DNA of 64,000 nucleotides from Raillietiella orientalis (GCA_036172245.1 JAYWIR010000006.1:5580001-5644000); one strand, 5' to 3'. Counted from the first letter of the stretch, positions 31,226 through 64,000 are shown. Notes: generated by a model not told the origin, from the sequence alone. Program-made: numbers and translations.

Positions 31226-32320
31226 AATGACCAGGTGAGAGAGGATCCTTGCCGCGGGCGAGGAAAAGAAAGAAAGAAAGGAGGAAAAGAGAAAAAGAAA
31301 GCTCTGCGCCGGCGCTCTCAAGGACACGGGAAGAAGATGAGACGCCGGACGGGCTGCGCTCAGTGCCCCACTGGGGTCATGGGAGGGTCTCCTACGAGTT
31401 CGCGCGCGACCCCGAAATCTAGCGGAACAGGGGGAGAGGGCACTCCGGAAAGGACCCGGGAGGCAAAGGGAGAACCCTCGTGCGCGAAAAGACCCTTCCG
31501 TTCCCCCCCCCCTTCTCCAACGCAGCCCGGTTGCCCGACTACCCCTCGCCCGCCTCTCCCTCTGGCCGGTGGAGGGGCGGAAGGGAGGGGGGGAGACCCG
31601 CCCGCAGCAGCGGTCGGAGGCTACGCACCTCGCGTTTCCGCCATCCCGGCGGGAAGCCCTGGCGGCGCGGGATGCGGGCGAGCGGGCTCCGGGAGCAGCG
31701 CTGCAGCGGCGCGCGGAACCCAGGCGAGCCCGCCCGCCGAGGGAAGGGCGGAAGAGGAAGGAAGGGGACGGGGGAGGATCCTCCCTGAAGGCGGGAAGGC
31801 GGCGAGATGAGCCACGCCCTCTCACCTTCCAGCCGGCGGAGCTGTTGCTGTCTCCCTTGTCCTTGAAGTAGGGGATGTTGTGGACCATCCAGTCGTAGAT
31901 CTGGGAGAGGGTGAGGCGGTACTCCGGAGAGCTCTGGATGGCCTGTGTGATGAGGTCGGCGTAGGACAGGTTGCCCCAGGCGTTGCGTCGGCTCGAATTC
32001 TTCTTGGAGGCGGTGGCGGCCGGGGCGGCGGCGGGTCCGTCGGACTTGGTGGCGTCCCCGACGCCGTGCTGCTGATGCTGTGGGGAAGGCTGGAGGAGGA
32101 GCAGCCGGCCGCCGCCGCCGTTCTCGTCGGGCTCTGCGACCACCGCGTCCTCGGGCTTGGGCAGGGGCCACGTGTTGGCACGCGACCGCTGCTGCTGCTG
32201 CTGCTGGCCGGCCGGCGGCGGGTCCGCGTCAAGGACCCGCACCAGCGGGCCCAAGTGGTGGTAGCCGGGGGAGGGCTGCGGGAGGGGCACGGGGGGACCG
32301 GGGGAAAAGGGCAGGTCCAT
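17927..32320 (-). CDS. FoxO: Forkhead box O transcription factor, copy A, complete 3-exon CDS, 611 aa
   Basis: Exons 32320-31826, 19817-19080 and 18529-17927 are all phase 0 and join in frame. The forkhead domain is split at the usual GWK|NSIRH intron position. Three Akt motifs (RSRANT, RRRATS, RQRTNS), a basic NLS, a C-terminal FoxO transactivation motif [13 protein letters not shown] and a terminal SWVR are present. Confidence 0.96.
19080..19817 (-). CDS. FoxO: FoxO copy A coding exon 2 (246 codons)
   Basis: Branch-like CTGAC and acceptor TTCCAG, then [61 protein letters not shown]. Donor CAG|GTGCGT at 19079. Confidence 0.93.
21130..21149 (+). promoter_or_regulatory. CTCF-like motif
   Basis: TGCAGCCCACCAGGAGGCGC resembles the CCACYAGRKGGCGC core. 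A single match in GC-rich DNA. Confidence 0.3.
25682..25769. repeat. Compound (GGC)n/(GCA)n trinucleotide tract in FoxO A intron 1
   Basis: Directly visible GGC and GCA runs within a CpG-dense stretch. Confidence 0.9.
31826..32320 (-). CDS. FoxO: FoxO copy A coding exon 1 (165 codons)
   Basis: ATG in context CCCGCG-ATG-G. Encodes [12 protein letters not shown] ... [55 protein letters not shown]. Donor GTGAGA at 31825. Confidence 0.96.
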
Positions 32321-35300
32321 CGCGGGGGGGGGGAGGTAGGAGCGGCCGACGGCGGCCCTGCTCCTCCTGCACTCGCTCGCCCTCTTCCTGCTTCAGGAGG
32401 CGCCCGTCAACGCGCGCCTAGCGTGGCCGCGTCGGCGCCGCACCGGAAGAACTTCCTCCGGGACGCGGCTGTGGGAGGCCTCCTCCTGGAAGAAAACGCG
32501 TTTGAGGGCGCGCCATCCCTGAGCCTCCCAGCAAGCGCCCCGCGCGCAGTAGAGAGAGAGAGAGGGAGGGAGGGCGACCGGGACTGTTCCCTTCGCGAGT
32601 GAGCGCGCGCAGCCCAAGTGCGTGCGCGCTCCCGCAGGAACGAGCCGCCCACCTCCTCCCGTCTGCAGCGCGCACTGGAGAACGCGCAGCAGCCCGGGGT
32701 CCGGCTGCTCCCTCTGTGCTCCTTCCCCACCCTCGCTTCCCTCTCCCTCCCTTTCCTTCCTCCACCCCCTCGAAACGGCTGTGCGTGCGCGCACGCGCAA
32801 GGAGAACGGTCGGAAAGGGAGAAGCCAGCCGAAGGGAACGTGAGCGCCGGGAGCACATGTTTTCCCGGGCAACGGCCGTCTCCTTCCTTCCCCGTTTTCC
32901 TCAAGTGCAAGCAGAGGAGCCCCTTCGCGACCTCCACTTCCCGAAGCTAGGGTCACCACCGGACAGAAGGGAGGCGATCGCTTCTTTATCTTCGCGGGAG
33001 AGGTGACTTCGTCATCTGCCTCCCTCCCACCTCCCTCCCTTTTTTTTTTTTCTTTTTCCTCCTCTAGGAAGAGTGGTGGTGAGCCACGGGTGGTAAACAG
33101 GGACCCAAAAGGCGGAGGGGTCCGTCAGGGCAGGGGGGGAGGGAGGCAGCTGCCGCGCCCCAGCCATTCCCGAGGAAGATCCTTCCCGACGCGAAGACAC
33201 TCTGCTTACGCGAGAGGACGAATGGTACCTTTTTTCCTATCGCCGTCCTCGTCCTCGTTGCCGCTGCTGTCTTCGTCTTCGCCAGCAGTCGCGGCAGCAC
33301 TGGTCATCCACCGGCCCGGTCGCCTCTCCGAGCAGCGAGGTCACCGCCTACTGCTGGCCGATCACGGAAGGTGCCCGCGCGAACACTGGAGGCATTTCGC
33401 CAGCCAATCGGAGATACCACGGAGCGACCTGTCGGGAAGCGCGGACCGCACGCAGGAGGCTCGCCGGTTGCGCATTCACTACTGCGCGGTTCCACCGCTC
33501 GTTGCGAACTCGTACGCAATCCGCACGCGAGCGCGCGTGTAACGGAGACTGGAGCAGGCCAAGTAGGCGACGTCTCTCCGGGCTGCCTGCCTGCCTGCCT
33601 GCCTGCCGCTCGGGCTTTTGCCGGGCTGCAGCAAACTTTTGCCGCGAGCGCGCCGTGTCATCGCCGCTGTCCGATCCTGGATCGAGTGATGCTGCGCAAC
33701 CGGGAAACAAGGGGAGAGGAGCGGCGGTCGGTGCAGTGACTCGGGTGGGAATGAGTTTGTAAAGAGGGAGGGAGGGAAAACACGTAGGCAACCCCTCCCC
33801 CTTTCCCACCCACCCACCCCCCCCCAAAAAAAAAAAAAAAAAAACGTACACATACGGAAAGAAGAAGAAAAAAGGCACACACACACACACACACACGATA
33901 CTTCTGGAGAGTTGGCGTGTGCTTTTTCCACTGTGTCTTCTGCAGGGGGTCTTATGCTTTCTTCGCACGCGCACAGAAGCTCTGTGCCAAACTGAAGCGT
34001 CCGTACGGGCACATCGCGTGCACGCCCTAGGCTAGGAGCCTAGGCTAGGCGTATTGTTGCGGAAGCGCGCGTCTCCGACCGACGCAACAATGATTTGCGG
34101 CGACATGCACGGGCGGCAGCGGCGTGGAAGTTTTCTTCCCTTGCTTTTCCACCGCCACCACCACTCGCCCTCCTCCTCCCCGCTCCGTTTTCCAGAGGCC
34201 AAGACGAAAGAGGGCCGGGCGACCTTTCCTGCTTCGGTTTTCCCATACCTCTCTGCCACGAGACGGCAGCGGCGGGATTCTGCGTCCGCCCTGGCTCCTC
34301 GGTTCGTTTTCATTCCGCTCGCGTGAGCCCCAGCAGCGCTCCGCCAAGTTCGCTCGCATCTCCTGCTCGCACAGTACTCCCCTACTTCGCGCGAGGGGAG
34401 GGGAGGAGGGGGGGGGGAACATGGGCTCTCCGCCGTGCTCACGCACGCCTCGCGCTGCCCATAGCGAACCCTCCAGCGAATTTTCCCGGGTAGCGGTGCG
34501 AGGTCGAGAGCCGCGCGTGCGTGTCTTCTAGCCGGAGACGAAGGAGGCAGAGCAGTGTCTCCCTCCCGAGTACGACTGTGCGGAACAGTCTGCGTTTATC
34601 ATTATTTTTCGTGTTTTTTTTTTTTTTCGAATGGCAAGCCGCGTCGTAAGTCAACCCGAGGTTCGCGATGCTTACCGCCGCGTCACGCGCTCTGTCGGCG
34701 GTAAGCGGTACTACGCGCGCAGCAGAATGCATTACGGCGAGCCTACGGTGGGAGTAGGGAGGAGGTGGTGCAGAGAGAAATGGCAACTCCCCTGCAGACT
34801 CGGGAAGAAGCAGCGCAGAGTGCTGGGCTGTTGCGACGTGTGGTTCGTAGGTGGGTGTGCTCGTTCCCCCCCCCCTCGCCCCCCCTCCCTCCCTCATCTC
34901 CCCGAGGAGGTGGAGATTCGATTTAATTTCCAGCGATCGTCGCTGGCGGACTTGCGGCAGGCACGACGCATCCCTGCGAGGTGCGCCTTCGCATTCCGCC
35001 CCGTTGCGCCTCGCAGTTGTGTAACGCGAACTGAGTATGCTGCGCTTGCCGAGGCAGCATGCGGTATCACCTCTCCCGTGCCATTTCCTAAGAGATAAGC
35101 GAGGGTCCAAGTGGGAAACGCTCTCAGAATGCCATTTCATCCGTTTGCAACCCAAGAATCCTCTCATTACCATCCTCTGCCGACGACATCGCTGCTTCCC
35201 TTACCTTGAATGCCAGAGACGAGTGCTGCTCGCAGCGTGATGTAATTGGGTGAGGCTGTTGGTCCGTTGCGCAGGCTCGCGGCTAGGAAGAGATCTTCAG

Positions 35301-38300
35301 ACGAGGAGACGCACCGCGGCCTACACCGATGGGGAACGCGGCGGTGCGCGAATCTGGTTTCCCAGCTTCCCGGCAGAGCTGCAGCGCGCCTGCCGATCAG
35401 GAGAACCTTCCTGCGTTGAGGATAAGCGACCGTGGACGCACGCCTGCCTCTTGCGCCCCGTCCGAAGGAGATCCTCGCGAGTCGCAGCGTGGTTGCACGG
35501 GATCGCGTCGAAGGAGAAAAACGAAGGAATCAACGCAGCAAGCGACACTCCCCTCCCCCCTTCTTCCTCTCTCTACAAGGTGTTTCTGCGCGTCGAGGAA
35601 CCTTTCTGCTCTCCGCGAAACGAGATGAGGCAGCCTGTGGAGTCATCTGCCTCGCCGCAGGTGCGCAGTGCCATCTAGGTCGGTCTACTCGAAGGTACGC
35701 TGAACACCTGGGAAGAGGAGCAACCCCCCTCCGCCCCTCCGTTCAGCAGCCTTGCACGGAGGGGGGAGAGCCTCAGCCCGGTGGCAACCCTTTGAGAACG
35801 CGCGAGGCGGCCCGAAAGAGCGCCCTTTGCGGGCAACCTTATCATTCCCAGTTGCACTCGGAGGGGCTTTTCCTTTTCTTCCTTTCTCGCTCCCGTTATC
35901 GGTCAGCATCCTTTTCGGAGAGCGTTCAGTACCGACCCGGAGACGACCTTCCTCCGGTCCTCCGCGCGCGGGCCCGAGCCGGCGCGAGCGCGCGGACGGG
36001 CAGTGGCGGTTGGCCGGGGAGACGTGGCGCGGAGGCCGCTTCGTTGCCTGGACACGTCTCATTCTAAATTTACACCAAACAATGGGCGCGCATCGCAACC
36101 GAGTGGCTGCGAAGAGAGAAACTTCCCAAACTTCCCTGCGGAATGCCATTCAACCAATCGAAAATGGCCGCGCAGCCGCCATTAAAATATTTTCTTTTGC
36201 AATCGTCATTATTTTTCGAGAAATTTGAATAAATTTAGATAAAAGTGCTTTATTCAGATCTATTCAAATTAGGCAGCACACTGTAATTCTTATATTAATC
36301 AGTGATGAATTGTGCATTGCTACGCTCCGAAATATTGTACTTCCTAAGGGAGCTTTAATTACACACGTGATGTTTCCCGAACGTTTCATCAATAGGTGTT
36401 GCTGTGGCATCTGAATGTTCCCGCAGCGGATACGATAAGGAATATTTATGAGCTTATTCGCGGAAGATAAAAGTCATCTTCACTTCGAAATCTTCTGCGA
36501 CCTTGCTGCGGATCATTTCGACCGAACCTTCGGCCGGAGACTTGGCCTGCCTATTTTCCGCTTGGAGTCCTCCTGCTCCCGAATAAACGAAACAAACGGC
36601 AACCCTACGTGTCCTTTTTTTTTTTTCTCTTCCTCAAAATAAAAAAAAAAACAGGAAGACAAAAAGCAAAACAAAAAAAAAAGGAAAGGAAGAGAAGCCG
36701 CTATGGGTCGGTGAGGAACGCCGAGGTGCCCACCGTGGGCAAAGACAGACGTCTGAAAACGAAATCTCGTTCTTCCGTCCACGGAAGGGACTGGATGCCC
36801 TCGGTCGCTGTACTGCTTCGCAACGAAACGGACCACGCCCCACCTCGGAGTCCGAGCAAGGCCGTTGGTGCTGCTGTCGCCGCTGATGGTTCCTCCGTAA
36901 GGAGTCACGGAACGTAAGTGCGCCTCGCGGGCCGAAGAGGGGACGTCCTTGTTGCCATGGTCCCGCTAGGAGAAGGCCGGCGAACGGTGCGAGCTGGGCG
37001 AAACCTTTGTCGCACGTGACCGGAGGGTAGGGATTTTCTCAGAGAGGGGGAGAGAGAATTCCGGGTCCGGAATCCAGGGATTTTCAGGGATGCTGATTCA
37101 AAGCTCGCATGAAGCGGAATGAAAATCTCCGGTGGCCGGGCTGGATTTGGGGAGAATTCGAGGGCAGGAAAGGGGGAAGGGGCGGAGGAGATGGAGAGGG
37201 AGAAGCCATGGCCTTGGATCAACCCCGCGATACCTGGAAGGTGAACGAGTCGAAATGAAGCTCCATTCAAGAGTGCGGCGGCCTCTTCTTTACCTGGTCC
37301 GTCCTCCCCTCCTCCCCCCTCGTCCTCGGTCGACGACGACGGTTGCAGAGGAGGAGGAGTCCTTGGGGACGCCTCCAATTCCCCGCTGCCTGCGTCCCCG
37401 TACCCTTCCCTCCTGGTAAGGAAGAAGCGCCGCTGCTGCTTCAGTTCCATCGGAGCCGGGCGGCGACGCCGTCAGTGACATCTCTCGGGGAAACGAAGAA
37501 GCAGAGTCCACGTGCCGGAAAAAGGGCGGAGGAAAGCAGGTCGGGCAGAGGAGAACGCGCCCAGGAGTCCCACGTCCGCTCCCGTTCCCGTGGTCAGCCC
37601 GAGCCATTGCACCACCGCATGCGACTCGTGGGCCCGCCGCCGCGGCTCCGTAGCGCCTCCTCCGTTCCTCCAACCTCCCGCCCCTTTCTTTTCGACGTAA
37701 ACGAGGGAGAGTAGGGGGTGGGGTGAGGTCCGCACCTGGAGATCCGAGCGCCCTCGCAACGTTGGTTGGGGACCCCGGGAAGGGAGGGGAGTCCCGTGGA
37801 GCTCAGGGGACAACAGCGATGGGGTCGAGCGAGCCCTGGGGCGGAGATCCCCGCCCGCTCTGTTCCTGGCCCCTCGACCTGCGACCCGCCACTTTCACTC
37901 CCGTCCCCAGGGGAGGACTGCGGCGCTTCTCGGCTCCAGTTCGACGGCCCGCCGCTAGGCGGCGGAGTCTCATATCTACAGGAGCCCTCGCGCGCGGGCT
38001 CGGGCGGAGCAAAAAAGGGCCAACACGGGGTCACTCTAGGCTTCCTTCGGCTCTGTGAGGTCGGGATCGAGTGAGGGGAGTTTCGCGGAACCTGCCCTTC
38101 CTCGCTCCCCTTCTGCTCGCTCGCCCGGGGAGTGATCGTTCGTTCGTAGAGAGGGGAGGAAGGGACGGCGTCGGAAGAGGCGCCGCGTGGACGCGGGCAG
38201 GTCGCCTCCCCAGTGTCCCTGTCCACGTGCGGGGCATGCGACCCGCCGCTCCGGGGGCGCGCGCGCTGGCGCGGCGATGACGTAAGAGCGATAAAGAGGC

Positions 38301-39549
38301 GGCGGGCGGGCTCTGCCGGCGGCGGTTGCGACACGACGCCCTGCGACGTCGGGGGGAGCGATCGATAACGCCCGTAATGGCCGGGTCGCGCCGATAACGC
38401 CCTGGCGATAACGGCGGCGAGGGAGGCGCTCACGTGACAGTGCGCCCTGTGTAGGCGCCGCCGCCGCCCTCTCCTGGTCTTCCTGGCGAGGGCGCCGCCG
38501 CCGCCTCGCACCCTCTCCAGGGGTGCCTCTCCCCCTCCTCTCCCTCGCTCCCTTCCTTCCTCTCCCTCTTCCGTCGAGCAGCCGAGGAGTTGCGCCCACG
38601 GTTGTCGCTGCCTGGCGCTCTCTGCAGCACGCCGCCCACACGACGTACGTCCCCCATCCCGCGGAGGCTCGAGGTCGCTGAGTCGAGGGGGAGCTGCGCC
38701 ATCCCTCTGAACGCGGCCTCCATCCTGGTGTGTCCGGTCTGGAGCGGGTCTCCGGCCGCCGGAGGTGCCACTGATCCCAGAGGGCAGGTCGAACTTCCCA
38801 TGACCTTTCCTCCTGAGGTGCGCCTTCGTGTGGAGCTCTACGGAGGAGTCAACCGAGTTCGGGCACCACGCAGTCGCCGTCGGGGACAGCTCCTCAGGGA
38901 CCTCCCCATGCGATGCGACACTGGGCACTAAGGGGGGAAGACAAAAGGGCTGCTGGCTGCGCGCGCCACTCAGGGAGCCCCGAGCGAGGCAGCGACGTCC
39001 GGGTCTGAGAAGAGTGGAGTGGGAGGACGTTCAACGTCATCTATGAATGGCACATGGAAGCTCCTTCCCCTCTCATCCTCAGAGTGGGAGCACCCGCACC
39101 TGCTCAAGCCATCGAGGAACTGATGACCGAGGGAGAGGTGCGACCGCATTCCGCATGAGGTGAGGTGCTTCCCTCCTTCCCTCCTTCTCGCGTGCTCTCT
39201 CCAGACCGGAGCCAGAGCTGGTCATCCTCTCTCTCTGCTGCCATCTTTCTGAAACTCTTTTCTTTGCCTCCTTGCCCTGGTCTGGTGGTTCTGTAGCCCG
39301 GAATCTGCCACGGATAACCCTCTCCCCCCCTTCTTTCCCCCCCCCCCCCATCCTCCTTCCTCTGCGTGCGGAAGGACTCTCTCGCACGCTCTGGGCATCT
39401 CCTGCCAATGCTCGGATGGCGGTGATATCAAACGTTGCTCAGAGGAGAAGGAAGGATCTTGCCGGAAGGGGGCGAGAGAGTTTCGTGGAGGGCACAGGAC
39501 CAGGAAACTGTGGAAGCGTCAAGGTCGCGGCCCAGCATCCGGATACTGC

Positions 39550-40400
39550 CAAAAGGTCATCTTCTTGAGATCCTATCGTCTGGAAGTGGGCTCGCCCCAG
39601 GAGCACGATAGGGGGAGCGCAGAAACTGCTCCCCCGGAAATATCCTAGGAAGTGCGCTCTCAGTCTCGGCCCCAGAGCGGGGCGATCGACGACCTCCCAC
39701 CACCATCTGAGCGTCCTTCAGGAAAAGTTCGACTGGGCCGGGATCGGGAAGAGGGAGGGCCATCGGCAGACAGGCGGCGCAAAGAACGCTAGAATGTGGG
39801 AGAAACGGAGAAGATGGAGGCAATGGCCACACAGCAAAGGAAGGAGAGGAGACCTTGCGTTTGGTCTCGTCTTCGAACGAGGGCGCTGCCGCCGGTTTCT
39901 GTGGCTGTGGACGTGGATCGGAGCTTCCTTCGATCCCCTGTCGGGGAGCTTTAGGGAACTGGAGGATTAAGAAGGAGAGACATCTCGCTTCCCGGGACCG
40001 CTGGCGGCGAGGCTGGAGCCGCCGCGGCTCTGGAGCCCTGCGGCGGCGGAGGGCTGCGGCTCTACAGGAAGGTAGTTGGCCAATAGGAGTAGAGATGGCG
40101 CCGCAGGCGCGTTTTTCCTGCCGGTGAGAGAGGACATTAGCACTCGACATCACTGCGGCAGCTGGGATGGGATGGGGAGGGGGAAAGGGCGGAAGCTGGG
40201 AGAAAGTCCCGCTCCCACTTCCCTGTTCCCGGCCTTGGATATTCGGGAGACACCCGGAGAAACAGGAAAGGCCACACGAGGAAAGCACTCGGGCTGCCGG
40301 ACACATGCATGAATTTACGCGAGGGATGAGCCAGGCAGGAGAGGCCTCTCTGTGGTAGACAAACCACCCGCCACTCATCCGTTTCTGAGAAGTAAACGGG
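39550..40400 (-). mobile_element. Decayed Ty3/Gypsy-like pol fragment
   Basis: 'ALPLPDPGPVELFLKDAQMVVGG' resembles the RNase H start consensus (LxxPD...F.LxTDAS..GVG). Boundaries are approximate. Confidence 0.35.
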
Positions 40401-42099
40401 AAGGAGGGGGAAAAGCATTTTGTACGGAAGTGTTGCCCCCCAGTGGGTGGACGGGCAACGGGGGATGTGCACGCGCGTTCCAGACGGAGGGACCCCCGGG
40501 CAGTGCAGAGTCCTGCCCCTCACTGTTCTCCGTCCCTCTTACTGGTGGTCGGCGAGTTGCCGCGAGAACACAACTGGCCGATCCGACGGGAAAGCCCCAG
40601 CGCGTTGATGAACTCCTCCCGTAGAAGGAGTAAAAGAAGAGGAGGACGAAGAGGAGGAGATGAAGGAAAGAGGAGGAGGGATTGGGAAGAACAAGAGTGG
40701 GAAGGGAAGAGGAAGAGGAGGAATGAAAGAGGAAGAGGAGGAAGGGAAGAAGAGGAGGAGGAAGAGGAAGGGAAAAGGAAGGAGGACCTCGGAGCTCAGA
40801 CTCGCGAAAATGCGCTGCTGAAAGTTTGGAGCGCTCTCGATTGGAAACGCCGCGGTTCCGCCAGGGAACTACTCAGGGAAGGACGTTTCTGGGAGCTCCA
40901 TTCGTACCCTCCTGCCTTCAACGCGGCAAGGGTTTGGCCCGGTGGAGGCGTGCGGTGCGGCTCTTCCTGGAGGACCTCCACTTCTGCGGCATGTGCGCGG
41001 CGACTGTTTGGAGCTTCCCCCTTACTTTCGCGGGGCATCCGAGGGCTCCTTTCACACCCGAGTACGTCGGGGCGTTTATTTTTTAAAAAAACAAACAAGC
41101 ATATATAGGGCCATTGCCCCTACAGCGTCCGATACAGACTCGGAACTTGCCGAGTAGGCAGCGCGCAGGCCGGCGAGTTCGACTCGGCAGCGGAGGGGGA
41201 AGGGACAAATAAAAACAAAAAAAGAAAACACTATTTACAAAAGCAGGGAGGGGTTGGGGAAGGGGTCACGTTCCGCTGGGGTCGTCCTCTACATCCTTTC
41301 CAGGATGCCGGCAAGTCCAGTCTGCATACATCCGACTGCCGTCCTCAGGAAGCGCAGGGCGGAGCGGATGATGTCCCTATGGTTAGGTCCTGGGGGGTTC
41401 GCGGGGTATTCGAGGGCTCCTGGAGCGTCAAGAGAGGGTCTGGGGTGGTGAAGGAGACGGGCAAAAGCATCGCGTCCTCTCCCGTTCGCTCACCTGCCCA
41501 GGGACTTTCGCTGGACGTTCGTCCGCAGGGTTTGCTCGCGGACGCCCTTGTCTCGTAGCCTCCGCGAGGTGGCTCTGAAAAGGGGCTTTTGCCAAGTGCG
41601 ATGGCGTCCCCTTTCGGATTACGGACGGCCCTTTCTCTTCCTCCAGCGGTCCAGAGAGGGAGGCTGCGGGCCACCCATATCCTGAGGCGCAGCGAGCAAA
41701 CGGTTGGGGAACTGCCCGGATGCGCGATGGCAAGTAAGAAAACTCCCAAGAAGCACCCTGGTGCCGGGAAGGAAGAAACCTTTCCAGGAGGTGGAGAGAC
41801 ACCTGGAGATGATGGAAATCCTTGGGTCCTTCTTTTTCTTCTGTCTTCGCTGTTTTCCTTCCAGCTTTTTTTTTTAAGAGTTTTCTTTTTTTTGGTTCGC
41901 TAAGTACCTCAGAGCCGGTCGCGTGCCTCGCGGCGCGCGTGGCTCTTTTTAAACATTAACACACTGTTTTGTTTCCACGCCTGTCCGCGGCAACCCGCAG
42001 GGGGGGGCGTGTAATTCTTCAGTGTAATATTCTTCAGGATAGGGGGCACCCCGGGATGGGGTCCGCCCTATTGAATCCAGGAAGGGCTCGGAGTCCGTT

Positions 42100-45400: not shown

Positions 45401-45450
45401 CTGGAGGTCGTGAGCACGGGCGACGAAGAGGCGCGTGTCTGCGTTGGCGT

Positions 45451-45499
45451 CCCTTCCTGTCGGATTTTCCCAGGTGCGGGGAAAATCCGACAGGAAGGG
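45451..45499. repeat. Perfect inverted repeat: 21-bp stem, 7-nt loop
   Basis: CCCTTCCTGTCGGATTTTCCC-AGGTGCG-GGGAAAATCCGACAGGAAGGG; the arms are exact reverse complements. Confidence 0.95.
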
Positions 45500-51400: not shown

Positions 51401-54400
51401 TGCAAAAGAAATTAAGCACATGGACTTCGTCAAACGTAGAACAATTGTCCATAAATTTCAATGCCAACAAGTCTCTTGAGGAAGTACCGATTATTCCATT
51501 CTGTCCGTGACCTTCTGATGTAGGAAGCTGCGGAAAAAAAAAAAAAGATACGATAAAAATTTTGGACATAGCAATCTACTTTTATGAAGTGTGTTTCAAG
51601 GAGGGGGAGGGCCAGGAGAGGGGTAGTGGAATTTATTTCCAGCGTCATAATAGTAAAGCGGAAAGAAAGGTGAAATTTGAAAAAGAAAAATAAAATAGTT
51701 TAGAACTTAAGCAATTTCAGTTCCTCTTTGAGGTTGCTGCATACTTTTTGAAATATCGTTTGCACGTATGCCTGAAGCCGAAGTACATGAAAACCACAAA
51801 TTGCATTAGGTTGAGAACGAAATGCTACTACGTAGGAGGCATAATTGCATAACCGCAAAGTTAAATATGCGCCGTACTGAAATTCAAAAAAAAAAAAAGC
51901 ATCTGGCAACACCGAATGCATTGTTGCTAGCTAAAACATTGTGAGATATCCGTACGCGCCATGTTGATTTGTGATCGAGCTGCTCCAATTCAGCGTGCCT
52001 ACAGTGCTGAAAAATTTTCATTCCCCATTAACTACGGAAGCGGAGGACCAAGGAAACTTATTTAGTCAATCCATCAAACTTATTTAGTTTTGATTAGAAA
52101 GGTAAGGAAGCCCAAATCTCATATCGAAGCACGCTGTGCATGCACAAAGAGTCGTCATACGAAAGGCCCCAAAAACGAAATCATTTCATCCGTAGCTGCA
52201 CGTACACACACACACACACACACATAGGTACACATGCTCATGAAATTGAATTTTTCGAGACTGAAGGAATTCATGCTGCCATCTTCAATACATTATTGTT
52301 CTATGATCTGAGGATGAAAGAAGCCAATGCATGATTTACAACACCTCATGGCGCCAGAGAAGACGGAACGAGGAAAAAAAAAAAAAGAAAGCTGCCATTA
52401 AATTTCGCCACTGATCATTCAGAAGTCCTCTCCTAAGCAAATTATTCACAGCGCTGTGACGTTAGCAGCTGCCCGTGAAACCGAAGACGATTTTTCTATC
52501 CCGACGATCCATCCCCTGGCGGCGGTTGCTCGAGTCCTCCAGACGATGACTCCATGACTCTCGACGGATGCATTCATTAAATTCTTAATGGTGTGAGGAC
52601 GAAGATTCACGCCGATGCGCCCGAAGTGTGATGTCGAGACGCGCGCACGAAAACACCCCGATATCATCGGTACTGCGAATTTACTGTTAATCAATCATCC
52701 GGATGGTGTCTCGGGACTTTATTTTCGAAAAGTCGCCTCCGAGAAAGGGGACGCCGAACGGGAACGCTCGCGCTTCGGAATAGTTTCTTTCGTTCAATTA
52801 ATTCTCCTAGGTACGTGGCCCTAATAAGGACGCTCGCCAGGGAAGTGGCGCGGATGACGCTCGACGCCCGTGCCTTGCCGTCGCCCACACTTCGCTAATT
52901 CGTGCGAGCGGCGTCGGACGCGTGACGAGCGAAACTTCTGCCGCCTCCGAATTCCGATGGCCGGCCGTGGCCAAACCCAATTGCCTCCCGGGGATTCCCC
53001 CGTGGGAACTCGCATTTCGTGTCCGAGAGCGCCCGGGATGCTCTCGCGTTTTGGTACCGCGCGGCACACCACGCCAAGAGCTTCGGGTCGTTTGTTACTG
53101 CCAGAAGAGGAAACCGTTCCGGTGATCGAGGGTTGGCAATGGCCGGCGTGCCTTTCGCGGGAAACGGACGTTCCGACAGTCGGGAAGGCCTGGGCAGGGA
53201 TGCTGGCGAATAAAGCAGTTTCTGGAAGTTCAAGTCGAAATCGATCCCGGGCTCGTATTGGCGCCCATTCGAGATGCGCCATGTTTTCAAGAATGATAGT
53301 CCTCTACCACTGATCCGATTGCGGATTGCTTGCCTTACACGCCGCATCGATCTGATTGGACAACCGAGCGGTTGATTTCCCTAAAATCCGAATTTCTCGA
53401 GCTCTTCCTGTCGAAGGTCTGGCTGAGTCGGTTCTTAAGGGAAACCCGATTTCCGATCCCTTCCGCATCTTCGAAGAGAGCAGGCAGTTCTGGATCTGAA
53501 AGCATCGTATCTTCTGCGTATTGGGGAGCACGCCTCAGATCTTCTGTCTCATCTTCAGCCCGAGCCACAGGCGGAGGAGGCTCTGTTTCCGAAGACGAGG
53601 CTCATTTCTAGGTGTAGCACTCACAAGAAACTGGCTGTTGCCGCCTGCATAGGGTCCTGGAGACCGACTAAAATTACAGCAGACTCCTAACAGTCTTCGC
53701 GCTTGACTATCGCATGGGTTCTTTCTCTTTTTCGTCTGCAAAATCATTTCTCCCCGTGCAGCTGTCAAAAACAAAACAAATCAAAAAAAAAGGGTGCGCT
53801 TGTGACTCTACCCGGTAAATCAACAAAATTTCGGACGAAGTGGGTTTCAAGTAGGCAAGTAGGAACCTGAAGCTATAAGATTCTGCTTTGTGGCTCGTGA
53901 GACTTTAACGTATCCTCTTAGAAAGAAGAAAACATGCATAGGAGGAGAGCTTTCCCACTTCCTAAACCTAGAAAGTAAAAATGAAATATACACGAGGATT
54001 TTATTTATTTATTTTTTGCAACCGCCACTCAAAGAGGCGACGTCTGTCCTGCTGAAAACAGACTCCAAACCGTACACAAGTGACCACTCTCACTAGTACG
54101 TGATGCACGAGCGCCGCAAATTAGGGGAGACAACGAACAGGAAGACACATTCCTCGGGAGCCTGCGGCTGCTGCTTCTCTTCCCCTCCGATCTCTCTTCG
54201 TTCCTTTGTGGCCACCGTTCCTCGTGCTCAGCTGTTGACTCGCATGGGGAACGGATTTGTGGATCGGCGGGTGCAAGAAGGAGTCGAGCGCACAGGGCCG
54301 CGCGCGGGCAGCAGTCGGATTTTTAACCCGACGTGGTGAGTCGGCACCCTATGCAAGCTCACCCCAAAATGGGACGGCAAATGGAAACCTGGTGGCGTCC

Positions 54401-54566
54401 CGGAAGCCACCGCAGGACCCTACCGCGGCGTTTCCCAAACCGGGACTTTCCCGCGGAACGCCAGTGTTCCGCGGAAAGCCGACCAGTGTTACGTGGGAGA
54501 ATGTGAAAACTTTACATAATTAAAAGAATTTGAGAATCAGTGTTTGCTTTGTTTCCTTAACTCTCA

Positions 54567-55203
54567 TGTTTACTTGCGTGATTTATTTGTTCTTAATATC
54601 TACCTACCCTACAAAATAATCAAGATACTCCTTTCAAAATGTCAGGATTTGTGAAGTGTTCCGCCATAGGAAAAGTTTCGGAAAGGCTGCCCTAAGGAAT
54701 GCTTAGAATTTTCCGCTTAGTTGACTGTGAGGAACTTAAATTAGTAGTAAACAGCGTACACAGCCATTTGTTTGTAAACAGCTTACTGTTTGCTCAAGAG
54801 GAGGAGCAAGCTGTTAGATTTGCTACCCGGAAAGCGCATTAATGCAAAGTTGCCAGCTCGTGGCCATTGGTGGCTGTCGCACCATTTTGCTCCAACCTGC
54901 AAAACCTCCAAGACCGAGTTCTGTTGGCGGCCGTGAGAGCCACTTGCCGAAGGAGTCCGAACCGGACGTCCACATCTGAGGGCTCCATTTCGGGGACCTT
55001 GGTAGAAGCGAACTGGACCAAATGCACACAGACTGTGCGACTCTCCGATTTCAGCAAATTTTCGATCATGACAAAGTATGCGATGGAAGAAAGAAGGGGA
55101 GGAGGAAAGGAAAGGAAAGGAAAGGAAAAAAAAAGAAAAAAAAACGCTGTCTTTCTGGTGGAGAGAACCTTTTCCAGACTCTAAAACCGAACCGTCTGTT
55201 TAC
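54567..55203. promoter_or_regulatory. Cluster of FoxO/forkhead core motifs (GTAAACA / TGTTTAC)
   Basis: Exact cores at 54567-54573, 54747-54753, 54774-54780 and 55197-55203, plus near matches (TGTTTGC, TGTTTGT). Function is not shown. Confidence 0.4.
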
Positions 55204-55820
55204 CTACCGGCATCGAAACGCGTGTTTTCTAGATGCCAGTGTTCATCTCTAAGCGTGTACCGCGAGCACAGGCAAATTTATCTGCTACGGAACTTTAAGA
55301 ATAAAGAAATAATTAAAATGAACGGTGAATCGGAATAAAGCTCCGTTGTGAAAATATAAAGCATGAATAAGGAGGCTATCACGATGATAGACGTTCGGTT
55401 CCCAAATATGCAGTTCATTGCAAGAGTTTATGAGGCTGTAAAGCAATCAAATGCTTCACATAATGGAAGCTTTTCTTTCACATGAATGCGTGATATATGC
55501 TTTTATTTTTACCACAAGCAAAGTTTAATTCCTGCTCCTCAAATACGAACACGGGATGATATGATTTAAAGATCGTTCGAGTGGAGCACGGAGAGGAAAC
55601 TGGTCTACGCGGTGGATCAACAGTGCCAGAGAGACAATCAAACAGCGAGTGGACAGTGGTGAATCAGAATGGGGCGAGCCCTGGACTCCGGTGCTGCGGC
55701 CACGTCGGCGGTGTTCCTCCACGTTTCTTAAAGCCCAGACAAACATCGGCGATGCGCCCCAGGATGTACTTGTTGAGGGCGATGATGAATCAGCACCGCG
55801 CTGATTAATACAAAAATGCG

Positions 55821-55851
<31 letters not shown>

Positions 55852-58800
55852 TGTGTGTGCGTATGTGTGCGTGTGTGAACACATGCACATTCATGAAGTT
55901 GTATGAGCTCCCTTCTCCGAAAGCGCTCTTCCCTCTGATTCTCTCCGAAGTAAGAGTTGAGTGGCTGCGAGTGACGTCCCACTTTCTCAGTTATCAACAG
56001 GGCACGAGGCAAAACTCGTGTTGGTTTAGACAGAACTGGGATGCAACACGGAAGTACAAACGATTCACACTACACATATCTTCACTTTATGTAATTGGGG
56101 TCCCCTGTTATACGCGAGCACACATGCAAGGCTGTGTCGGCTAATGAACTCGTTAAGTTTAAACATCTGCCCAACTTTCGCCTCTCGGCCTGGCAGAGTC
56201 AGTTCCACGGCAACCCATGCCACGGAAATGCTGATTGAAATTTTACGCGAAGCTGGGATTGCGAATCGAGTCTTCTTCTAGCTGAGGTCCACGGATGATT
56301 CGACGAGCGCCTTTTCCTTCATGGCGGGGGAGGGGAGAGGGAGAGAGAGAGAGAGAGAGAAAAAAAAATTATCCCCCTTAATTCGTAGGCGCAAGAAGGA
56401 GGAAAGGCCCGTTGGGAGAACGCGCGAGCCCCCTGTAACGAGTATCTACGCGCCCCCGCCCACGCGGCATGGCCTGTCTATGCTGCAGTGTAAATAGCCC
56501 TCGATCTAGCAGGCGGCTGACTCACTTCAGGAATCGCGGAGATTTTCGTGGCGCTTATCTGCTCACCAGACTCCCTCACGATGTACTCCGGATAAAGCCA
56601 AGCCGCGTTTACCATCGCCATCGCATAGTCCAGTGCTCCGATCCTGGGTTTCCTTCTTTCATAGCTGTTGCATCATTAAATACCGATTCTGCGTCCTGAA
56701 AATGGCGATCTGATTGCAGCCTTTCGAAGGGGCCTCTTAGGCATCAACCATTCCATGAAATGTACCTTGGATGTGTCCTAGGATCAGAGACCCCGGCTTT
56801 CGGCATTCCCGCGGAAAGCACAGTAAAAATGTTGGCATGATTGGTGTTTGTTCCGTGTGCCAGCCCATTCGCAGAGAAGCCGTTCTTTCAAGAGATGAGT
56901 CCCTTTCTATCGAAATGCACTTGTACGTATCCTGATTATGGACATGGGCGAATTTATCACGATTCTCGGAGCGATCCCCATTTTCGGAAACGCGACCGTG
57001 CAGTCAAGTCGTCCGAGCTACACGTGGCCCAATTCAGGACTTTCGGACCGAGGAAGCCGAAATGCCAAGAGTCGTCGAAATGTGGTCTCGGCGAGGCAGC
57101 TGGACCGCACGAAAATACGCGCCGCCGCTGCACTCTCCAGGATTGGCTTCACTCCATTCTGAGTGCCTCGGTCTCGGTGAAAATCGATTTCGCAAGACCG
57201 AACTGCCCACGTCTTGTGGCTCGCAACAGATATGGCTTGTGGCAACGAAAGGGGTGGCAGAATTACCTGGGTTCTGCTTCACCTTTCGCACGTGTAAATA
57301 TTTACAGGTCAGCATGTCCGAGAACGCACACACGTAAGATGATGATGCTTCTCTTTCGAAGCCTGCCGCTGGCTGTAAGGGACATCTTCGGCAACTCCTG
57401 GGGTCCGCAGGCATCAATGCTTTCCTCAGTGACTGGCCTTTTGCAAATCCCTTTTCACGTTTCCCGCATTCCAGAGTACTTTGGGTTTAAGGGTCTTCCA
57501 CCCTCTTTTCCGGTTTTCCAAAAACGTGTGCTGTGAAGATCGAAGGATTTTGCTCAAGAGACAAAATCAAAGGAGATGAACGCGAAATTTTCATCTGTGC
57601 GTGGATCGTGGCGTGTTGTTCTTGGGACGGCCTTCTTCCGTAGGTCAGCCTCATTCCATTGCAGAGGATCAGATTCATTGCGTGGGTTAGTGTGAGCGAC
57701 GAAGAATGTTGGGAATTCGGAAAGGTGAGGAAGGAGATGAGACGTTGCCTGGGAGATAACCGCGAGATCGGTCCAGCGAGTAGGAGAAGAATGAATCGTG
57801 CAGCAATGAAGCAGAGCAGCACGTCGCGAAGCTGGCGGGGAACCAGTGCCGGCTGCCTCCTCGCTTTTCGGACGGTAAGCTTTTCAAATCCTTCGCAGGA
57901 ATTACGGGAGAGTTCAGCTGTAGCATGAGAACACCTAGGCGCAGGAGATGGGAGCTGACGCCTTTGCCTTCGTCTTTTATTTCTTGCTGAGCTGCTCGCA
58001 GCTGCTCCGTTTCAAGCTTTTCACGTTTGCTGAAAGTCTCCGATTAGCTCCACATCGCCTTCTCCTCCCTCCCTTTCCCTTGGAACAAGGGAGCATTTTG
58101 TTAAATGAACTCAGCAGCTCCGTTTGCGTGCTCGCTGCGGATTTCTGGAATTTTTCCCCCATCCCGTCTTGCCACCTTCATCCTCAAACTCCCACTCAGA
58201 ATTTCCTTAGTTCGAGAGACTCCCTCCCATTTCCTCGGCCCTGCCTCTGCTCACCCTCCCCGAGTCGGGCCTCGAAGCATGCCCCAGGCCTCGCAACTAC
58301 GCTTTTCGAGTATTTGGTTGCGATTGTGGATCGGTTGTGAGTCTGCCTGCTCTGATTTGGATTCATTTATAGCTGTCTCCTCTCAATCTTTCTTCCTCTC
58401 TCCTTTTCCTTCTTCCTCCTCCTCCCTGTAACGGAGGAAGATTTCCTTCAAGTGTGCCCTGCGAAGCCAACTTCGAACCGTGACACGGACTTTGACTCTC
58501 GAGCGCGGGCACAATTCCCCAGTGTTGGTCCTTAGCGTTCCTTGCATTTTCTTTGTTCCCTCGGCAGGAACAACATTCTTTTCAGATCAAACCGAGCAGC
58601 AGCAAAGCTGGGAATCTGCTGGAAATTCGGGAGGAACGAGGAAGCCGGGTGTGGGGGGCAGCGAATGAGGGAGTCCCGGAAGGCTATGCGGCACCTCTGC
58701 AAGCGGACCAGAGGAATCCTCATTCGATCGCCAGCGATGAACAAATGCCATCATCGTCTTCTGCGGCAGCACGCTGCCAGTGCCAAGATCACGAAGGTGA

Positions 58801-61800
58801 TCTTGCGGGGAAATTCTCCGCCGGACGCATCGTCGAGCGACGAGCCCCCCCGAAGAACTCGTGATCCCTTTTCTGCGTGCAGACACTTCGGCGTTTCCGT
58901 TGCGTTGCAAACGGGGCGTGCTGCTGTTTCTTCGTTGGGGTTTCCAGTGCAATCACAGCGTTGGCACCTCGTTTCCGGGAGAGTTGCGTCCCCAGACTGT
59001 TTGTGGTGCGGGACGATGGAACCATTCCCGCGCCTGCCGTTGGACCAGCAGGGTTGCCTTCCGAGAAGACTGAGACGGAGGCTGCCATCGAGGCTCTTGC
59101 GCTCTGAGGACAGAGCCAAGGAGAGCTGCTGAGGAGATGCTTCGCGCGAGGCGGAGTCTCGTCACGAGCCGTGTCGTGATCGGCAAGAGATGCTGCATTC
59201 GCACCACAGTCGCACATCTCGCCATGTGCTGAGAATCTCGGGCTCAGCAAAGGGAGGCTGCCCACATGGCAGCGGCCTACACGAGGACGGCGGAGAGGTG
59301 GAAGAAGTCTCCGGGGAGATCGCCACCACTCCGCGTTGGTTGTGGGAAAGATGTGGTAGCATCAAAGAGTCCTGCCCCTTTTTTTCGAGATTGTTTGCTG
59401 TCCTCTCCTTCCCCACTCCGAAATTTTTGGCCTGCTTGTCGGCGAACCCTCCCCCGAACTTTCCTTCCGTTGTTTTCGGGAACTGCGTTTGCTTATTTAT
59501 TTATTTTTTAAAGTGAATGCCCCTGCTTGACCGGGTGAAAACAGGAGCGATGAATGGAAGCGGCAAACTCTCAGTCGCCGGGTTCCCTTCGCTTCGGAAG
59601 ACACCGTCTCCGTCACCCAGAGCGCGCATGGAGACCTCGGTTGAACTTGGCAACGGAGTTGTCATCGCCACCCGAAGTGCTTCAGAAGGCTAGCAGCCAG
59701 CAGTAGCCACGGTGCACACGGCGATCATGGAATAAGGCAAGAGGATGAATCGTCCACACACGGTGACTTGCCGGCTGTTGTCCATCAGGTCGCGTGGGAT
59801 CGCACGGGCCTAGACTTTGGACGATTCTGCCGTGTTGGCGTTTCGGCTCCGCGGAGCGCCAACCGGCGTGCCGCTCCAAGTCCGAGTCGACGGCGCAACG
59901 ACAGCTTGCGGGGGAGCTCCCACCCGGCCGTTCCTCGAGAGGACGTCTTCTGCTTCTTCTTCCCGTTCGAAGGGAGACTCTCTCTCCGGGACGTGCCACT
60001 CAACTTTTGAAAGGATGGCGACCGAGGTGCTCCCGCTGGACACCCGCGCGCGGAAGCGGCTGCGCGCCGGAGGGTGGCGGGCGCAGTGGTGACCACGCAC
60101 CCTGAGGACTCTTCTTGCCCTTTACAACTGGCGGCGCCGGCGGAAGAGCCCTCTCTCCGCCTGGAAGGATCTCGGAAGCGAAGCCCCGGAGACGGGAGCG
60201 GGAAGTCCGCCGAGCTGACATCCGCGACGTGCTCCGAAGATGCAAATTTCTGTGCCTCTTCTTGATGGCTCCTGTCGGATCAGCCTGGACGCGCGTATTT
60301 CCTTCCGAGTCATTACGCGGGACGACAACAAAGGAGTCCTCGATGCATCAAGCCGATAAAGCCCGGACCATGGAACGGGAAGTGGAGGAGAGGGAAAAAA
60401 GAGAAAGAAAAAATCTGCAGAATCTCGTCTTTTCCCGTCTGGAGACTTTATGAGTAGCCTAGGCAACGCCGAAACGATTACCGAGGGGTCCCCAGCTGGA
60501 CGCTCGAATTTACATATAAATTCGCGCGGAATTCCCCCCCCCCTCCTCCTCCTCCTCTTCGCCAAGCGATTTCCTTCGAGGAAACGGATCCCCATGAAAG
60601 CCGTCCCTCATTTTCTCCCGTCTTTCCCTCATAATTTTCCGATAGGGCCACGGGGCGGCCGCGCTCCCGTTCGCGTTTCGGGGAGCGAGTCGGGAAAGTC
60701 GTGTGTCCCTCCGCTAACCCAGTCGATTCCTCCCCCTCCCCTTCACTTCCTCCTCCTCCTCGTTTCCTCTTTCTTCCCTTTTTCTTTCCTTTTTCTTCCC
60801 CCTTTTTTTTCGGGGCAGCGTCATGCGCTCCCGATCGGATGCGGCGGCAGGCGGCGGCGGGCTCTCTCCCCCCTTCGGACATGGCCGGATCATTACCGGT
60901 TCCTGGCGCGTGTGCCGCATCCTCCCGGACCGAAGCCTCGTCCCCATCTCGTCCGGACGATTCTCCTCCTCCCCCTCCCCTCGCTCTCCCCCATCCATCC
61001 ATAAATTTCGGATGTGCCGCAGTAAATCAGCCGTAGTTTCAACAAATGACCGCTTATTGGGGACGAAGGGGACGGGCGGCGAGGGGGAACCTGGGAGCAG
61101 AGAAGCAGCGCGGTCAGCGAATCTCCGCGTCGGATGAGGGAGCGCGCACGAGCCGGGACGGGTGCAGAGCGGAGGGCGGGCGAAGGAGGAACGAGAGGAC
61201 CGCGGCCATTGCAGCGACCTGTCCGACCGAGAGAAGGTTGCGGGATGGACAGGGGTCATCCGGAAGCAGCAGGGGAGAGGGAGGGCATGAGCGCTCCAGA
61301 CTGATAGCGGGTAGGGAAGGGAAGGGGGAGGGAGTCGGCACTCGAGCGTCAGTAGCTGCACCCTTTCCCCCTGACCTCCTCCCCACTGGCTTGTGGCCAG
61401 GCCAATAGGATCCGCGTGTCTGACCTACGGGAGCTCGAGATGCAGCCAACGCTCCCGGAGCACGGCCCCATCCCGCCGCATGCATGAGGCATCGTCAAAC
61501 CGCCGCTGCCGCCGCCGCCTCTGCTGCTGCTGCTGCTGCGCGCGCACGTGTATGCATGCGTGGATCCCTTCGCCGAAGAAGATGTGCCTTCCGTTGCTGC
61601 GATACCGGCGGATACAGAGACTCCGCTTCTCCTCCTCCCTTCCCTGGTAGCGGGAGGGCCCACGGCTCCCCCCTCTGAGAGCTCGCCGACCTCGGGAAGG
61701 GCAACGAGGAAGGCGCCAGCAGGAAGAGGAGCCGCGCGCCAGCCCGGAGAGGTGGGGCCGAGCGAGGCTGCCGATTCCTCCCCCGCCTTCTCCCCGCGAT

Positions 61801-62653
61801 CTCTCTCCTCCCGGGGAGCGGGGAGAGACCGCGGGTTCGCCTTTCCCTTCCCCTCCCCTCGCGCCCTTCCTGTGTCATCCACACTCGGGCTGCACCTGCG
61901 ACCTCACGCAGTTCAACGCGCGCGCACGGGAGGAGGGGACGGCGGGGGGAACAAAGGAAACAGGTGCGTCCCGGGCGTGTGGGGGAAGAGAGCTCCCGGG
62001 GCCCGTTGCGCCCCCCTCCCATCTCCCCTCCTCTGCCCGCCTTCCCGGAGGAAAGAAAGGGCCGTCTCCCGTGGGAAACCCGCCTCAGTCCGACCCCCGC
62101 GGACCTCCTGAGGGAGGGGACGGGGGAGCGAAAGGCTCGCGGCAGGAAAGGAGGAAGTTTCCTCCCGCGTTCCCTGGAGGCTCCCGTGGTTGTCCTCTCT
62201 AGGGGAGCAGACGGTCTTCGACCCCTAAGTGGTAGCGGGGGGAGGGGGTCGTCGAGCCGCGCGCGTGGATGCCGCCCAGGAGGCGGCAGTTTCTCGCAGG
62301 CACCACACTCGCTCGTGAGGTGTCGGTCAGGGGAGCGCTTCCTCCCCCTCCTCCATCCCCTCTCCCCTCTCTTGCTGGAAAGAAGGAAGGAAGGAATAGG
62401 AGGAGGAGGAGGAGGAGGAGAGAGAGAGAGAGGTGGGGGAGAGCCCAGCGAGAGAGAGGCTGCCGCAGCATCGGCGGCTGCGGAGCGCGTTCGGGCCTGC
62501 GCAGTGGCGACTCTCGGCGGCTGCGGCTGCTGGCTGAGCGGTAGCGGCGGCGGCGGCGACGCTCGGCGGCGGCGGCCGGGGCGCCGCGCGCGCGGCTCAC
62601 CACGTGGCTCCAGTCGCGCGGCCGAGCTCGGCGGACGCCAACATGCTCGCGCC

Positions 62654-63169
62654 ATGGTGACGGAGGGAGCGAAGATGCCGCTGCGGTCCGCGTCTCCGGT
62701 GCTGCTCGCGTACCCGTCCCTGCCCCCTGCCTTCCTGAACGGCGGCGGCGACCTGGCGGCAGCCCACGCGTCCAAGAAGGAGGACGACGGCCCTCCCGCC
62801 CACCACCACCACCACCACCACCACCATCACCACCACCACCATCCGGTTCCCTCGTGGGAAAGGGACAACGCTGCGTCGGCGGACAGCGACGCCGGCAAGC
62901 CCCAGCCCGCCCCCGCGCCCGCGGGCACGCTGGCCGCCGGCGCCACCGCCAGGGGCCAGGACGAACCCCCACCCCCCGGATCGAAGGTCCCTAAGCGTCC
63001 CTGCCGCAAGAACGCCTGGGGCAACCTGTCCTACGCCGACCTCATCACACAGGCCATCCAGAGCTCCGCCGAGAAGCGCCTCACCCTCTCCCAGATCTAC
63101 GACTGGATGGTCCACAACATCCCCTACTTCAAGGACAAGGGAGACAGCAACAGCTCCGCCGGGTGGAAG
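62654..63169 (+). CDS. FoxO: FoxO copy B first coding exon (172 codons); remainder, if any, lies beyond the window
   Basis: Strong Kozak context GCC-ATG-G, a 14-His run, then [55 protein letters not shown]. Donor GTAAGA at 63170, at the same phase-0 position as copy A. Confidence 0.92.
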
Positions 63170-64000
63170 GTAAGAGGGCGTGGCGCGAGCAAACGACCCC
63201 CCTGACCCCTTCAGCCTCACTGTCCCCTTTCCCTTCCCTCCCCCTTCCGTCGCATGAGAGTGGACCGAGACTGGGCCGCCCCTGCGGGACCCGGTATCGT
63301 CTTGCCTCCTCCCCCTCTCTGGGATCCAGTTCCCGGGAATGCGTTCTCGGGCCGGGGGCGAGTGCGCGGCAGGCCGCCGCCGCCGCCGCCGCCGCCGCCT
63401 CCGCCGCCTCTTGGCCTTCCCCCCCGCAGCGGGGCGGGCGCGTCCGCCTTCCCTCTGTTGCCTTCGTAACGGGAGCGCCGCCGCCGCCGCCGCCGCCACC
63501 GCCGCTCCGATACATTGTATCATCCGCGGGGGAGGATTTATGCGCCCGGCGGGCCCGCGCGCGCCCCCGGCCGCGCCGCCGTATATCACTCACGGGGCGG
63601 GGAGGGCTAACTGAGGGTTGCCGCGGCGCGGGCGGGCCCTCCGGCGCGCGCGCGCGCGGCTCCCCCACGGTCGGTCGGATCGACGTTCCTCTCCCCTCTT
63701 CCTTCCTTCCTTCCTTCCTTCCCGACAAGCTGACCGACTGCCAGAGGACCGGCCGCCGCTGCTGCTGCTGCAGGTGGTGGCGGGGTCGGGCGCAACCCGG
63801 AGGGCCGGCGAAGGGAAAAAGATCCTCCCTCCGCCATCGCCGCTCGATCACGTGCTGCGCCGCTTCCCCCGTCCTCCCGGAGGCTGCGACCCGGACGTCG
63901 CTTTCGCCCGGAGCCACCGCCGTTGCCCCAGCAGCCGGCTCGTGAGGAAGGCGGTGGCTGCCGGGCGCTCCTGTCCCTTCCCTTTCCCCGAAAGGGCCCG

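Follow-up and report, generated by a model that had tools for sequence, protein, structure and literature searches.

Organization of the FoxO locus

At the level of transcription, insulin/Akt signalling has FoxO as its central output. Here we describe a stretch of 64,000 nucleotides (nt) from Raillietiella orientalis (GCA_036172245.1 JAYWIR010000006.1:5580001-5644000; hereafter the window, that is, the whole stretch that was analysed, with positions counted from its first letter), which holds on its minus strand a predicted FoxO gene (copy A, FoxO-A) and on its plus strand a candidate first coding exon of a second FoxO (copy B, FoxO-B). An initial annotation, made from the sequence without database searches, had noticed that the two first exons share a near-identical segment in inverted orientation, and had put forward four models to explain it. 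The features of the locus are as follows, with slashes marking exon-intron boundaries here and below.

17927-18529 (minus): FoxO-A exon 3, 200 codons (18529-17930) plus stop codon TGA (17929-17927), with a FOXO transactivation-domain-like motif
19080-19817 (minus): FoxO-A exon 2, 246 codons, with the recognition helix [10 protein letters not shown]; 3' boundary predicted
19818-31825 (minus): FoxO-A intron 1, 12,008 nt, GT...AG, acceptor ...cttccag/AAC
31826-32320 (minus): FoxO-A exon 1, coding part, 165 codons; canonical N-terminus, then the N-terminal half of the forkhead
31811-31984 (minus): arm A of the inverted repeat, made up of 159 nt from the end of A exon 1 and 15 intron bases; one half of the proposed conversion tract
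32321-62653 (no strand): spacer between the divergent start codons, about 30.3 kb, GC-rich
62654-63169 (plus): candidate FoxO-B exon 1, coding part, 172 codons; private N-terminus of 119 residues with a run of 14 His, then the N-terminal half of the forkhead as in A
63011-63184 (plus): arm B of the inverted repeat, made up of 159 nt from the end of B exon 1 and 15 intron bases; second half of the proposed tract
63170-64000 (plus): start of the putative B intron, at least 831 nt up to the window end, holding no FoxO exon 2

Judged from its sequence, the minus-strand copy A comprises an entire FoxO gene of three exons (165 + 246 + 200 predicted codons), all junctions of which are GT-AG and in phase 0. 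The donor of exon 2 reads CAG/GTGCGT at 19080/19079, and the junction between exons 2 and 3 was placed solely from the GT-AG splice signals, the frame, and the end of the periodicity. The Pfam Forkhead profile (PF00250) is divided between two exons, with profile positions 4-42 matched in exon 1 (expectation value (E), 1.1e-10) and positions 46-84 in exon 2 (E 1.3e-8), and the joining of exons 1 and 2 re-creates ...[15 protein letters not shown], a stretch that is uninterrupted in the FoxO proteins P0020, P0027, and P0040. Exon 3 matches the Pfam FOXO-TAD profile (PF16676) with E 5.2e-5 and a score of 24.0 bits, short of the 27.4 bits set as the curated cut-off, and tblastn also placed other FoxO proteins on it (P0020 at 18436-18104 and P0124 at 18241-18104). 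On exon 1, other FoxO proteins aligned by tblastn from 32242 or 32188 down to 31826; since these alignments reach well upstream of the forkhead part, copy A appears to be the canonical orthologue.

Three Akt motifs (RxRxxS/T) are present in copy A, namely RSRANT at residues 45-50 of exon 1, RRRATS at residue 40 of exon 2, and RQRTNS at residue 108 of exon 2. They match the pattern of one threonine and two serine Akt sites, which a passage of PMC10611805 describes as conserved from daf-16a to the mammalian FOXOs. The private part of A exon 1 has G+C contents at the first, second, and third codon positions (GC1/2/3) of 0.79/0.54/0.90, and GC3 of exon 2 is 0.92. A protein search with A exon 2 gave 1483 matches, the best 120 of which came mostly from arthropods, with a top identity of 69% over 50% of the query. 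In what would be the 3' region of copy A, a (CA/TG)n-type microsatellite occupies about 17380-17480 and translates as THTHTH or VCVCVC.

A candidate second FoxO first exon on the opposite strand

The coding part of B exon 1 would start at ATG 62654 in the context gccATGg and end at an intact donor after 63169, beyond which reading through meets a stop after 11 codons. Its forkhead part matches positions 4-42 of the Pfam Forkhead profile with E 4.1e-11. Excluding the His run, the private part (315 nt) has GC1/2/3 of 0.73/0.64/0.88. Among 2020 null windows drawn from the GC-rich non-exon part of the window, none reached its GC3 of 0.876, and only 0.10% reached its GC3-GC2 difference of 0.238. 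Moreover, a blind periodicity scan, which collects open 60-codon windows bearing a coding signature, returned 29 rows, 27 of them on A exons 1-3 or B exon 1 (including three antisense shadows) and the other two at 10786-10968 (plus) and 63723-63902 (minus); around B exon 1, the scan picked out 62606-63202. As coding sequence, the private part of B appears similar in kind to the known FoxO exons. That a second coding exon really exists is supported by the GC3 periodicity, the gccATGg start context, and the AAG/GTAAGA donor together.

A search for the RxRxxS/T motif in all 172 residues of B exon 1 found none; that is, the N-terminal Akt/14-3-3 site looked for in a FoxO protein is absent from this exon. 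The run of 14 His codons (CAC/CAT) at 62800-62841 (plus) is roughly colinear with a run of six Gln codons in A at 32188-32205 (minus), just before the Akt motif of A exon 1. An out-of-frame ATG lies 11 nt upstream of the B start and opens a five-codon mini open reading frame (ORF; MLAPW, stop) at 62643-62660 (plus), which overlaps the main ATG and may be a regulatory upstream ORF.

An inverted repeat shared by the two first exons

A repeat search of the 64,000-nt window found inverted-repeat arms at 31811-31984 (minus) and 63011-63184 (plus), which are 174 nt long, 96% complementary, and 31,026 nt apart. Besides these, two inverted pairs of at least 60 nt were found, with lengths of 62-68 nt and 76-77% matches; the 174-nt arms are the only strong inverted pair in the window. 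On direct comparison, 167 of the 174 nt are identical, and the seven differences fall at core positions 57, 58, 60, 64, 66, 153, and 162, five of them thus clustered at 57-66 and the last one being intronic. The 10-nt patch with the five differences is bordered by perfect runs of 56 and 86 nt, the latter being the longest run common to the arms. Outside this patch the core differs at 2 of 164 nt, and 14 of its 15 intron bases are alike. The match reported in the initial annotation is therefore reproduced by both the repeat search and the direct comparison, and its extent, comprising 159 exon nt (53 codons, NAWG...GWK) and the first 15 intron bases at the GT donor, is as had been described.

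Global alignments of the core and of its flanks were each scored against 200 shuffles. The core gave z = 104.6, with none of the 200 shuffles reaching the observed score, whereas the flanks, taken over 150-816 nt on either side, gave z = -0.37 to 1.95, with 12-139 of the 200 shuffles reaching it. Comparable results were obtained with the private N-terminal peptides of A and B, for which the best BLASTP alignment had a non-significant E of 1.7; this alignment is colinear and sets the region of A with the six Gln and the Akt motif opposite the region of B with the 14 His. The parts upstream of the shared segment had been called unalignable, which agrees with these scores. Collectively, the observation of the repeat is correct and statistically unambiguous.

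Both first exons finish on a whole AAG codon followed by GT (AAG/GTGAGA in A and AAG/GTAAGA in B), and exon 2 at 19817 begins directly after AG with AAC TCC ATC..., encoding [10 protein letters not shown]. Since the exons end on a whole codon and exon 2 starts directly after AG, both donors are compatible in phase 0 with the acceptor at 19817, and the corresponding claim of the initial annotation holds as judged from the donor and acceptor sequences.

Origin of the near-identity

The same residue is encoded at 51 of the 53 shared codons, and at 49 of these 51 the codon itself is identical, compared with 32.1 expected from the codon usage of these genes. In a simulation of codon identity, none of 200,000 trials reached 49. 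Since the simulated maximum was 46, protein constraint combined with codon bias is insufficient and was ruled out as the cause of the identity. Recent duplication was ruled out by the unalignable flanks, as was a haplotype false duplication, only 174 nt being alike between such flanks. With constraint and recent duplication excluded, and with the intron bases also matching, gene conversion is the explanation that remains. Indeed, as in a conversion tract, identity is in excess at synonymous and non-coding sites, and its edges are sharp against the unalignable flanks. The near-identity indicates short-tract gene conversion, presumably between old paralogous exons in inverted orientation, and the divergence of 2/164 outside the patch beside shuffle-like flanks is the signature of such a putative tract.

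It is hardly probable that the near-identity is in part an assembly artefact, in which cross-polishing homogenised exons that truly differ more. The tract presumably coincides with the most conserved coding stretch, which would cross-map most easily, and homogenisation of similar paralogous sequence during polishing may imitate conversion. However, the patch of five differences in 10 nt survives in mid-tract, and the match extends over 15 intron nt; neither would be expected from blanket cross-polishing.

Islands of divergence are described, in part of PMC3728101, as persisting within converted paralogues in the case of GOT1 of the copepod Tigriopus californicus. As far as that account goes, the FoxO exons resemble GOT1 in having a tract of near-identity that includes synonymous and non-coding sites within otherwise diverged copies, and an inner island of divergence; unlike GOT1, the FoxO tract is only 174 nt long, the copies are inverted and 31 kb apart, and copy B is known from exon 1.

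The island in the FoxO core spans codons 19-22 (31919-31930, minus), which read SPEY in A and SAEK in B, with five differences in 10 nt. At the position where A has Tyr, Lys is found in B and in the FoxO proteins P0005, P0020, P0027, and P0040 (SSPE-Y-RLTL versus SS[PA][ED]-K-RLTL), and at the position where B has Ala, Pro is found in A and in most of these four proteins. In either copy, therefore, a single residue of the loop that joins forkhead helices one and two is unusual.

Proposed interpretation as divergent FoxO paralogues

On the sequence evidence, we consider it probable that the locus holds two divergently transcribed, head-to-head FoxO paralogues, the first exons of which share a 174-nt conversion tract and the second of which has its body beyond position 64000. 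The conversion is held with higher confidence than this statement as a whole. Most likely, copy B would be an ordinary duplicate of its neighbour, and not a device for exon swapping. In the proposed arrangement, the first coding exon of B would lie about 30 kb upstream of A and face the opposite direction, and each first exon would specify about 112-119 residues of private, disordered N-terminus and then the first half of the forkhead, up to the same phase-0 donor. Non-reciprocal short-tract recombination between the old paralogous exons would have homogenised 159 exon and 15 intron bases, and the remaining exons of B would follow on the plus strand beyond 64000. Several FoxO-like proteins are indeed found elsewhere, with three Limulus and three Tachypleus entries among the best 120 listed matches to A exon 2.

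The four models of the initial annotation were a head-to-head paralogue, ranked as the most parsimonious, an opposite-strand exon trans-spliced to exon 2, an inversion between the repeats that swaps N-termini, and a mis-oriented assembly. The first of these remains the simplest and keeps its rank, the periodicity, start, and donor of B supporting a real exon, while the body of B is placed by prediction beyond the window end. The second and third, on which the idea of N-terminus swapping is based, gained no positive evidence from the comparison of the introns, from the scan of 119 ORFs, or from the polarity of mod(mdg4), all given below. The last is weakened by a window that contains no N, and the explanation by conversion is added here to the original set.

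Several points weigh against two paralogous genes. A single FoxO is reported for urchin, tunicate, amphioxus, fly, and nematode in a portion of PMC8805411, and a second gene is thus not the default. The window reaches only 831 nt past the B donor, so that it stops before any second half of the forkhead or C-terminal body of B, and tblastn found no FoxO exon 2 or 3 in the window beyond those of copy A. A distance of more than 831 nt to a B exon 2 would nevertheless be unremarkable, given that intron 1 of A measures 12 kb. An open frame is weak evidence in GC-rich DNA, where such frames arise by chance; the frame of B is open for 325 codons upstream of its ATG, with flat periodicity. Furthermore, phmmer with B exon 1 against 1.84 billion representatives gave 1180 matches, and among the best 150 none starts before query residue 40. 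A word-based protein search with the same exon gave 1613 matches with E <= 0.001 among 8000 candidates, the top scores being inflated by the His run, and no near-identical protein was present among the best 120. Since these searches returned no relative of the B N-terminus, the case for it as a protein comes from its composition. Exact-pattern scans of metagenome contigs with a pattern near the window end and with a pattern from the shared core gave 0 matches each.

The same observations bear on the view that copy B is an orphan partial duplicate, that is, an exon 1 without its own body, whether a relic in decay or a dead end that is transcribed, in which the forkhead part is kept A-like only by conversion. 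Such an origin is unlikely, with a small but appreciable chance of being correct. It would account for the lack of an exon 2 in the 831 nt past the donor, for a B N-terminus with no homologue among the matches listed, and for a frame that may be open by chance, and conversion acts irrespective of the function of the recipient. However, the 315 private nt keep their GC3 of 0.876 and GC3-GC2 of 0.238 (values reached by 0 and 0.10% of the 2020 nulls), and the start context, frame, and donor are intact, whereas in a relic of such age that its N-terminus can no longer be aligned, the periodicity should have been lost.

Possible alternative uses of the copy B exon

The geometry of the locus also allows readings in which copy B serves the gene body of copy A. 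As in daf-16, copy B may serve the same gene as an alternative first exon, its plus orientation being due to a mis-oriented assembly, as in the fourth model above, or to a natural inversion allele; we regard this as quite unlikely. A flip of 31985-63010 would put the promoter and N-terminus of B before arm A, intron 1, and exon 2, and the conversion tract would show that the arms recombine. The daf-16 isoforms, as part of PMC4022319 describes them, likewise have different promoters and N-termini on a common C-terminal stretch of 319 residues. In the window as assembled, however, B and the gene body occupy opposite strands (plus and minus, respectively), in place of the same-strand arrangement of daf-16. 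Moreover, with no runs of N in the window there is no scaffold join at which the block could have been turned, and the longest perfect run of 86 nt is short for frequent crossover and likewise for confusing an assembler that works with paired or long reads. Both points weaken the case for a mis-oriented assembly.

An extension of the same geometry is that the arms are sites of recurrent or programmed inversion, by which the promoter and N-terminus at the gene body would be swapped within single individuals. Inverted repeats do flank the block, the swap would be in frame, and the putative conversion would show that the arms interact. Nevertheless, no recombinase or transposase family was found in a Pfam scan of 119 of the 163 ORFs of at least 150 amino acids (44 of the shorter ORFs having been left out by hand), and the identical runs of the arms reach 86 bases at most, so that we rate such a switch as extremely improbable. 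To our knowledge, no such inversion switch is known for any animal transcription-factor gene.

Both donors are in phase 0 and fit the acceptor at 19817, as would be needed if a plus-strand transcript of B exon 1 were trans-spliced to A exon 2, giving one body with two N-termini. Intergenic trans-splicing does occur in insects, for eight species of which part of PMC4667647 gives 1,627 events, affecting 1.58% of genes, and mod(mdg4) is described in passages of PMC13490949 and PMC12692577 as drawing exons from independent transcripts. According to the portion of PMC13490949 concerned, however, the common exons of mod(mdg4) are 5' and the variable ones 3', whereas the reverse polarity would be needed here. 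In addition, comparison of the 831 nt of B intron with A intron 1 gave no direct repeat capable of pairing the two pre-mRNAs, the best being 17 nt with 94% identity and E 0.10. With its low prior probability, trans-splicing has only a remote chance of being the correct explanation. When the readings are combined, it is very unlikely that there is one FoxO body to which B supplies an alternative promoter and an N-terminus free of Akt sites, either by trans-splicing or by a 31-kb inversion.

Comparison with known systems

A literature search, covering open-access papers, found no description of opposite-strand FoxO first exons. If B were used with the body of A, the locus would resemble C. elegans daf-16 a, b, and d/f, in which, as described in parts of PMC4022319 and PMC9790082, different promoters and N-termini precede a common C-terminal part. 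The first exons of daf-16, however, are on the same strand as the shared exons and joined in cis, whereas copy B faces the other way and is most likely part of a separate gene. Likewise, if trans-splicing were to operate, the joining of exons from independent units would be shared with mod(mdg4), as presented in excerpts of PMC13490949, PMC4387717, and PMC12692577, and the initial annotation mentions opposite-strand exons for that locus; unlike mod(mdg4), the variable exon here would be 5' and not 3', and there is no intron complementarity in the visible 831 nt of the B intron.

As two paralogous genes, the preferred interpretation, the locus resembles vertebrate FOXO1/3/4/6, which form a set of several genes with a conserved forkhead and diverged regulatory regions, as sections of PMC10611805 and PMC8805411 describe. 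FOXO6 is reported, in a passage of PMC10611805, to be without the regulatory mechanisms common to the other FOXOs, and in this respect the B exon with no N-terminal Akt motif is similar to it. Unlike the vertebrate FOXOs, which are attributed to whole-genome duplication and are on different chromosomes in the part of PMC8805411 that deals with them, the copies here are local and head to head, and would still be exchanging sequence.

FoxO interacts with 14-3-3, as mentioned in part of PMC4022319. Since the B exon is without the N-terminal Akt motif, a B-type protein would be expected, from general FoxO knowledge, to escape part of the 14-3-3 retention driven by insulin/Akt. A local second FoxO, if true, would offer a natural experiment on how paralogues can divide the regulation of FoxO between them, copy B having a lineage-specific N-terminus without the first Akt motif and a DNA-binding half still homogenised with that of the canonical copy. 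Trans-splicing or inversion, if true, would give an insulin-insensitive FoxO isoform through a mechanism new to the family. The most likely reading, an ordinary inverted duplicate with a conversion tract, is an arrangement of a known kind.

Spacer and surrounding sequence

In the spacer between the divergent start codons, no Pfam family was found among the scanned ORFs and no exon-like periodicity at 32393-62605; a purine-rich tandem repeat lies in it at 40636-40779 (period 20, 7.4 copies, 71% matches). Over the window, the only Pfam families in the scanned ORFs were forkhead, FOXO-TAD, ABC_tran/SMC_N, and a weak SET, and scans of the whole window with Rfam (gathering threshold) and for tRNA returned nothing.

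The composition of the window switches sharply at about 7 kb. The left part (1-7000) has 29-44% GC and a CpG observed/expected ratio of 0.0-0.5, and its ORFs, an ABCB7-like C-terminal exon at 3076-3795 (minus) and a weak SET-domain ORF at 5523-6698 (minus), have GC3 of 0.33-0.39. The FoxO region has mostly 55-72% GC, with a dip to 48-52% at 52-58 kb, an exon GC3 of 0.84-0.96, and a CpG observed/expected ratio of 0.7-1.2 over the measured part at 7-14 kb. From these values, the left 7 kb looks like a methylated housekeeping region adjoining a large unmethylated GC-rich domain; a chimeric join at the switch is also possible. Among its best 120 matches listed, the ABCB7-like ORF has 59-67% identity to proteins of insects, a tapeworm, and a sponge. 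A protein of the wasp Microctonus aethiopoides (P0269) is annotated with both ABC transporter and SET Pfam domains, which could be a hint at an ABCB7/SET gene neighbourhood like that at 3076-6698 in the window, reflecting either conserved microsynteny or a merged gene model.

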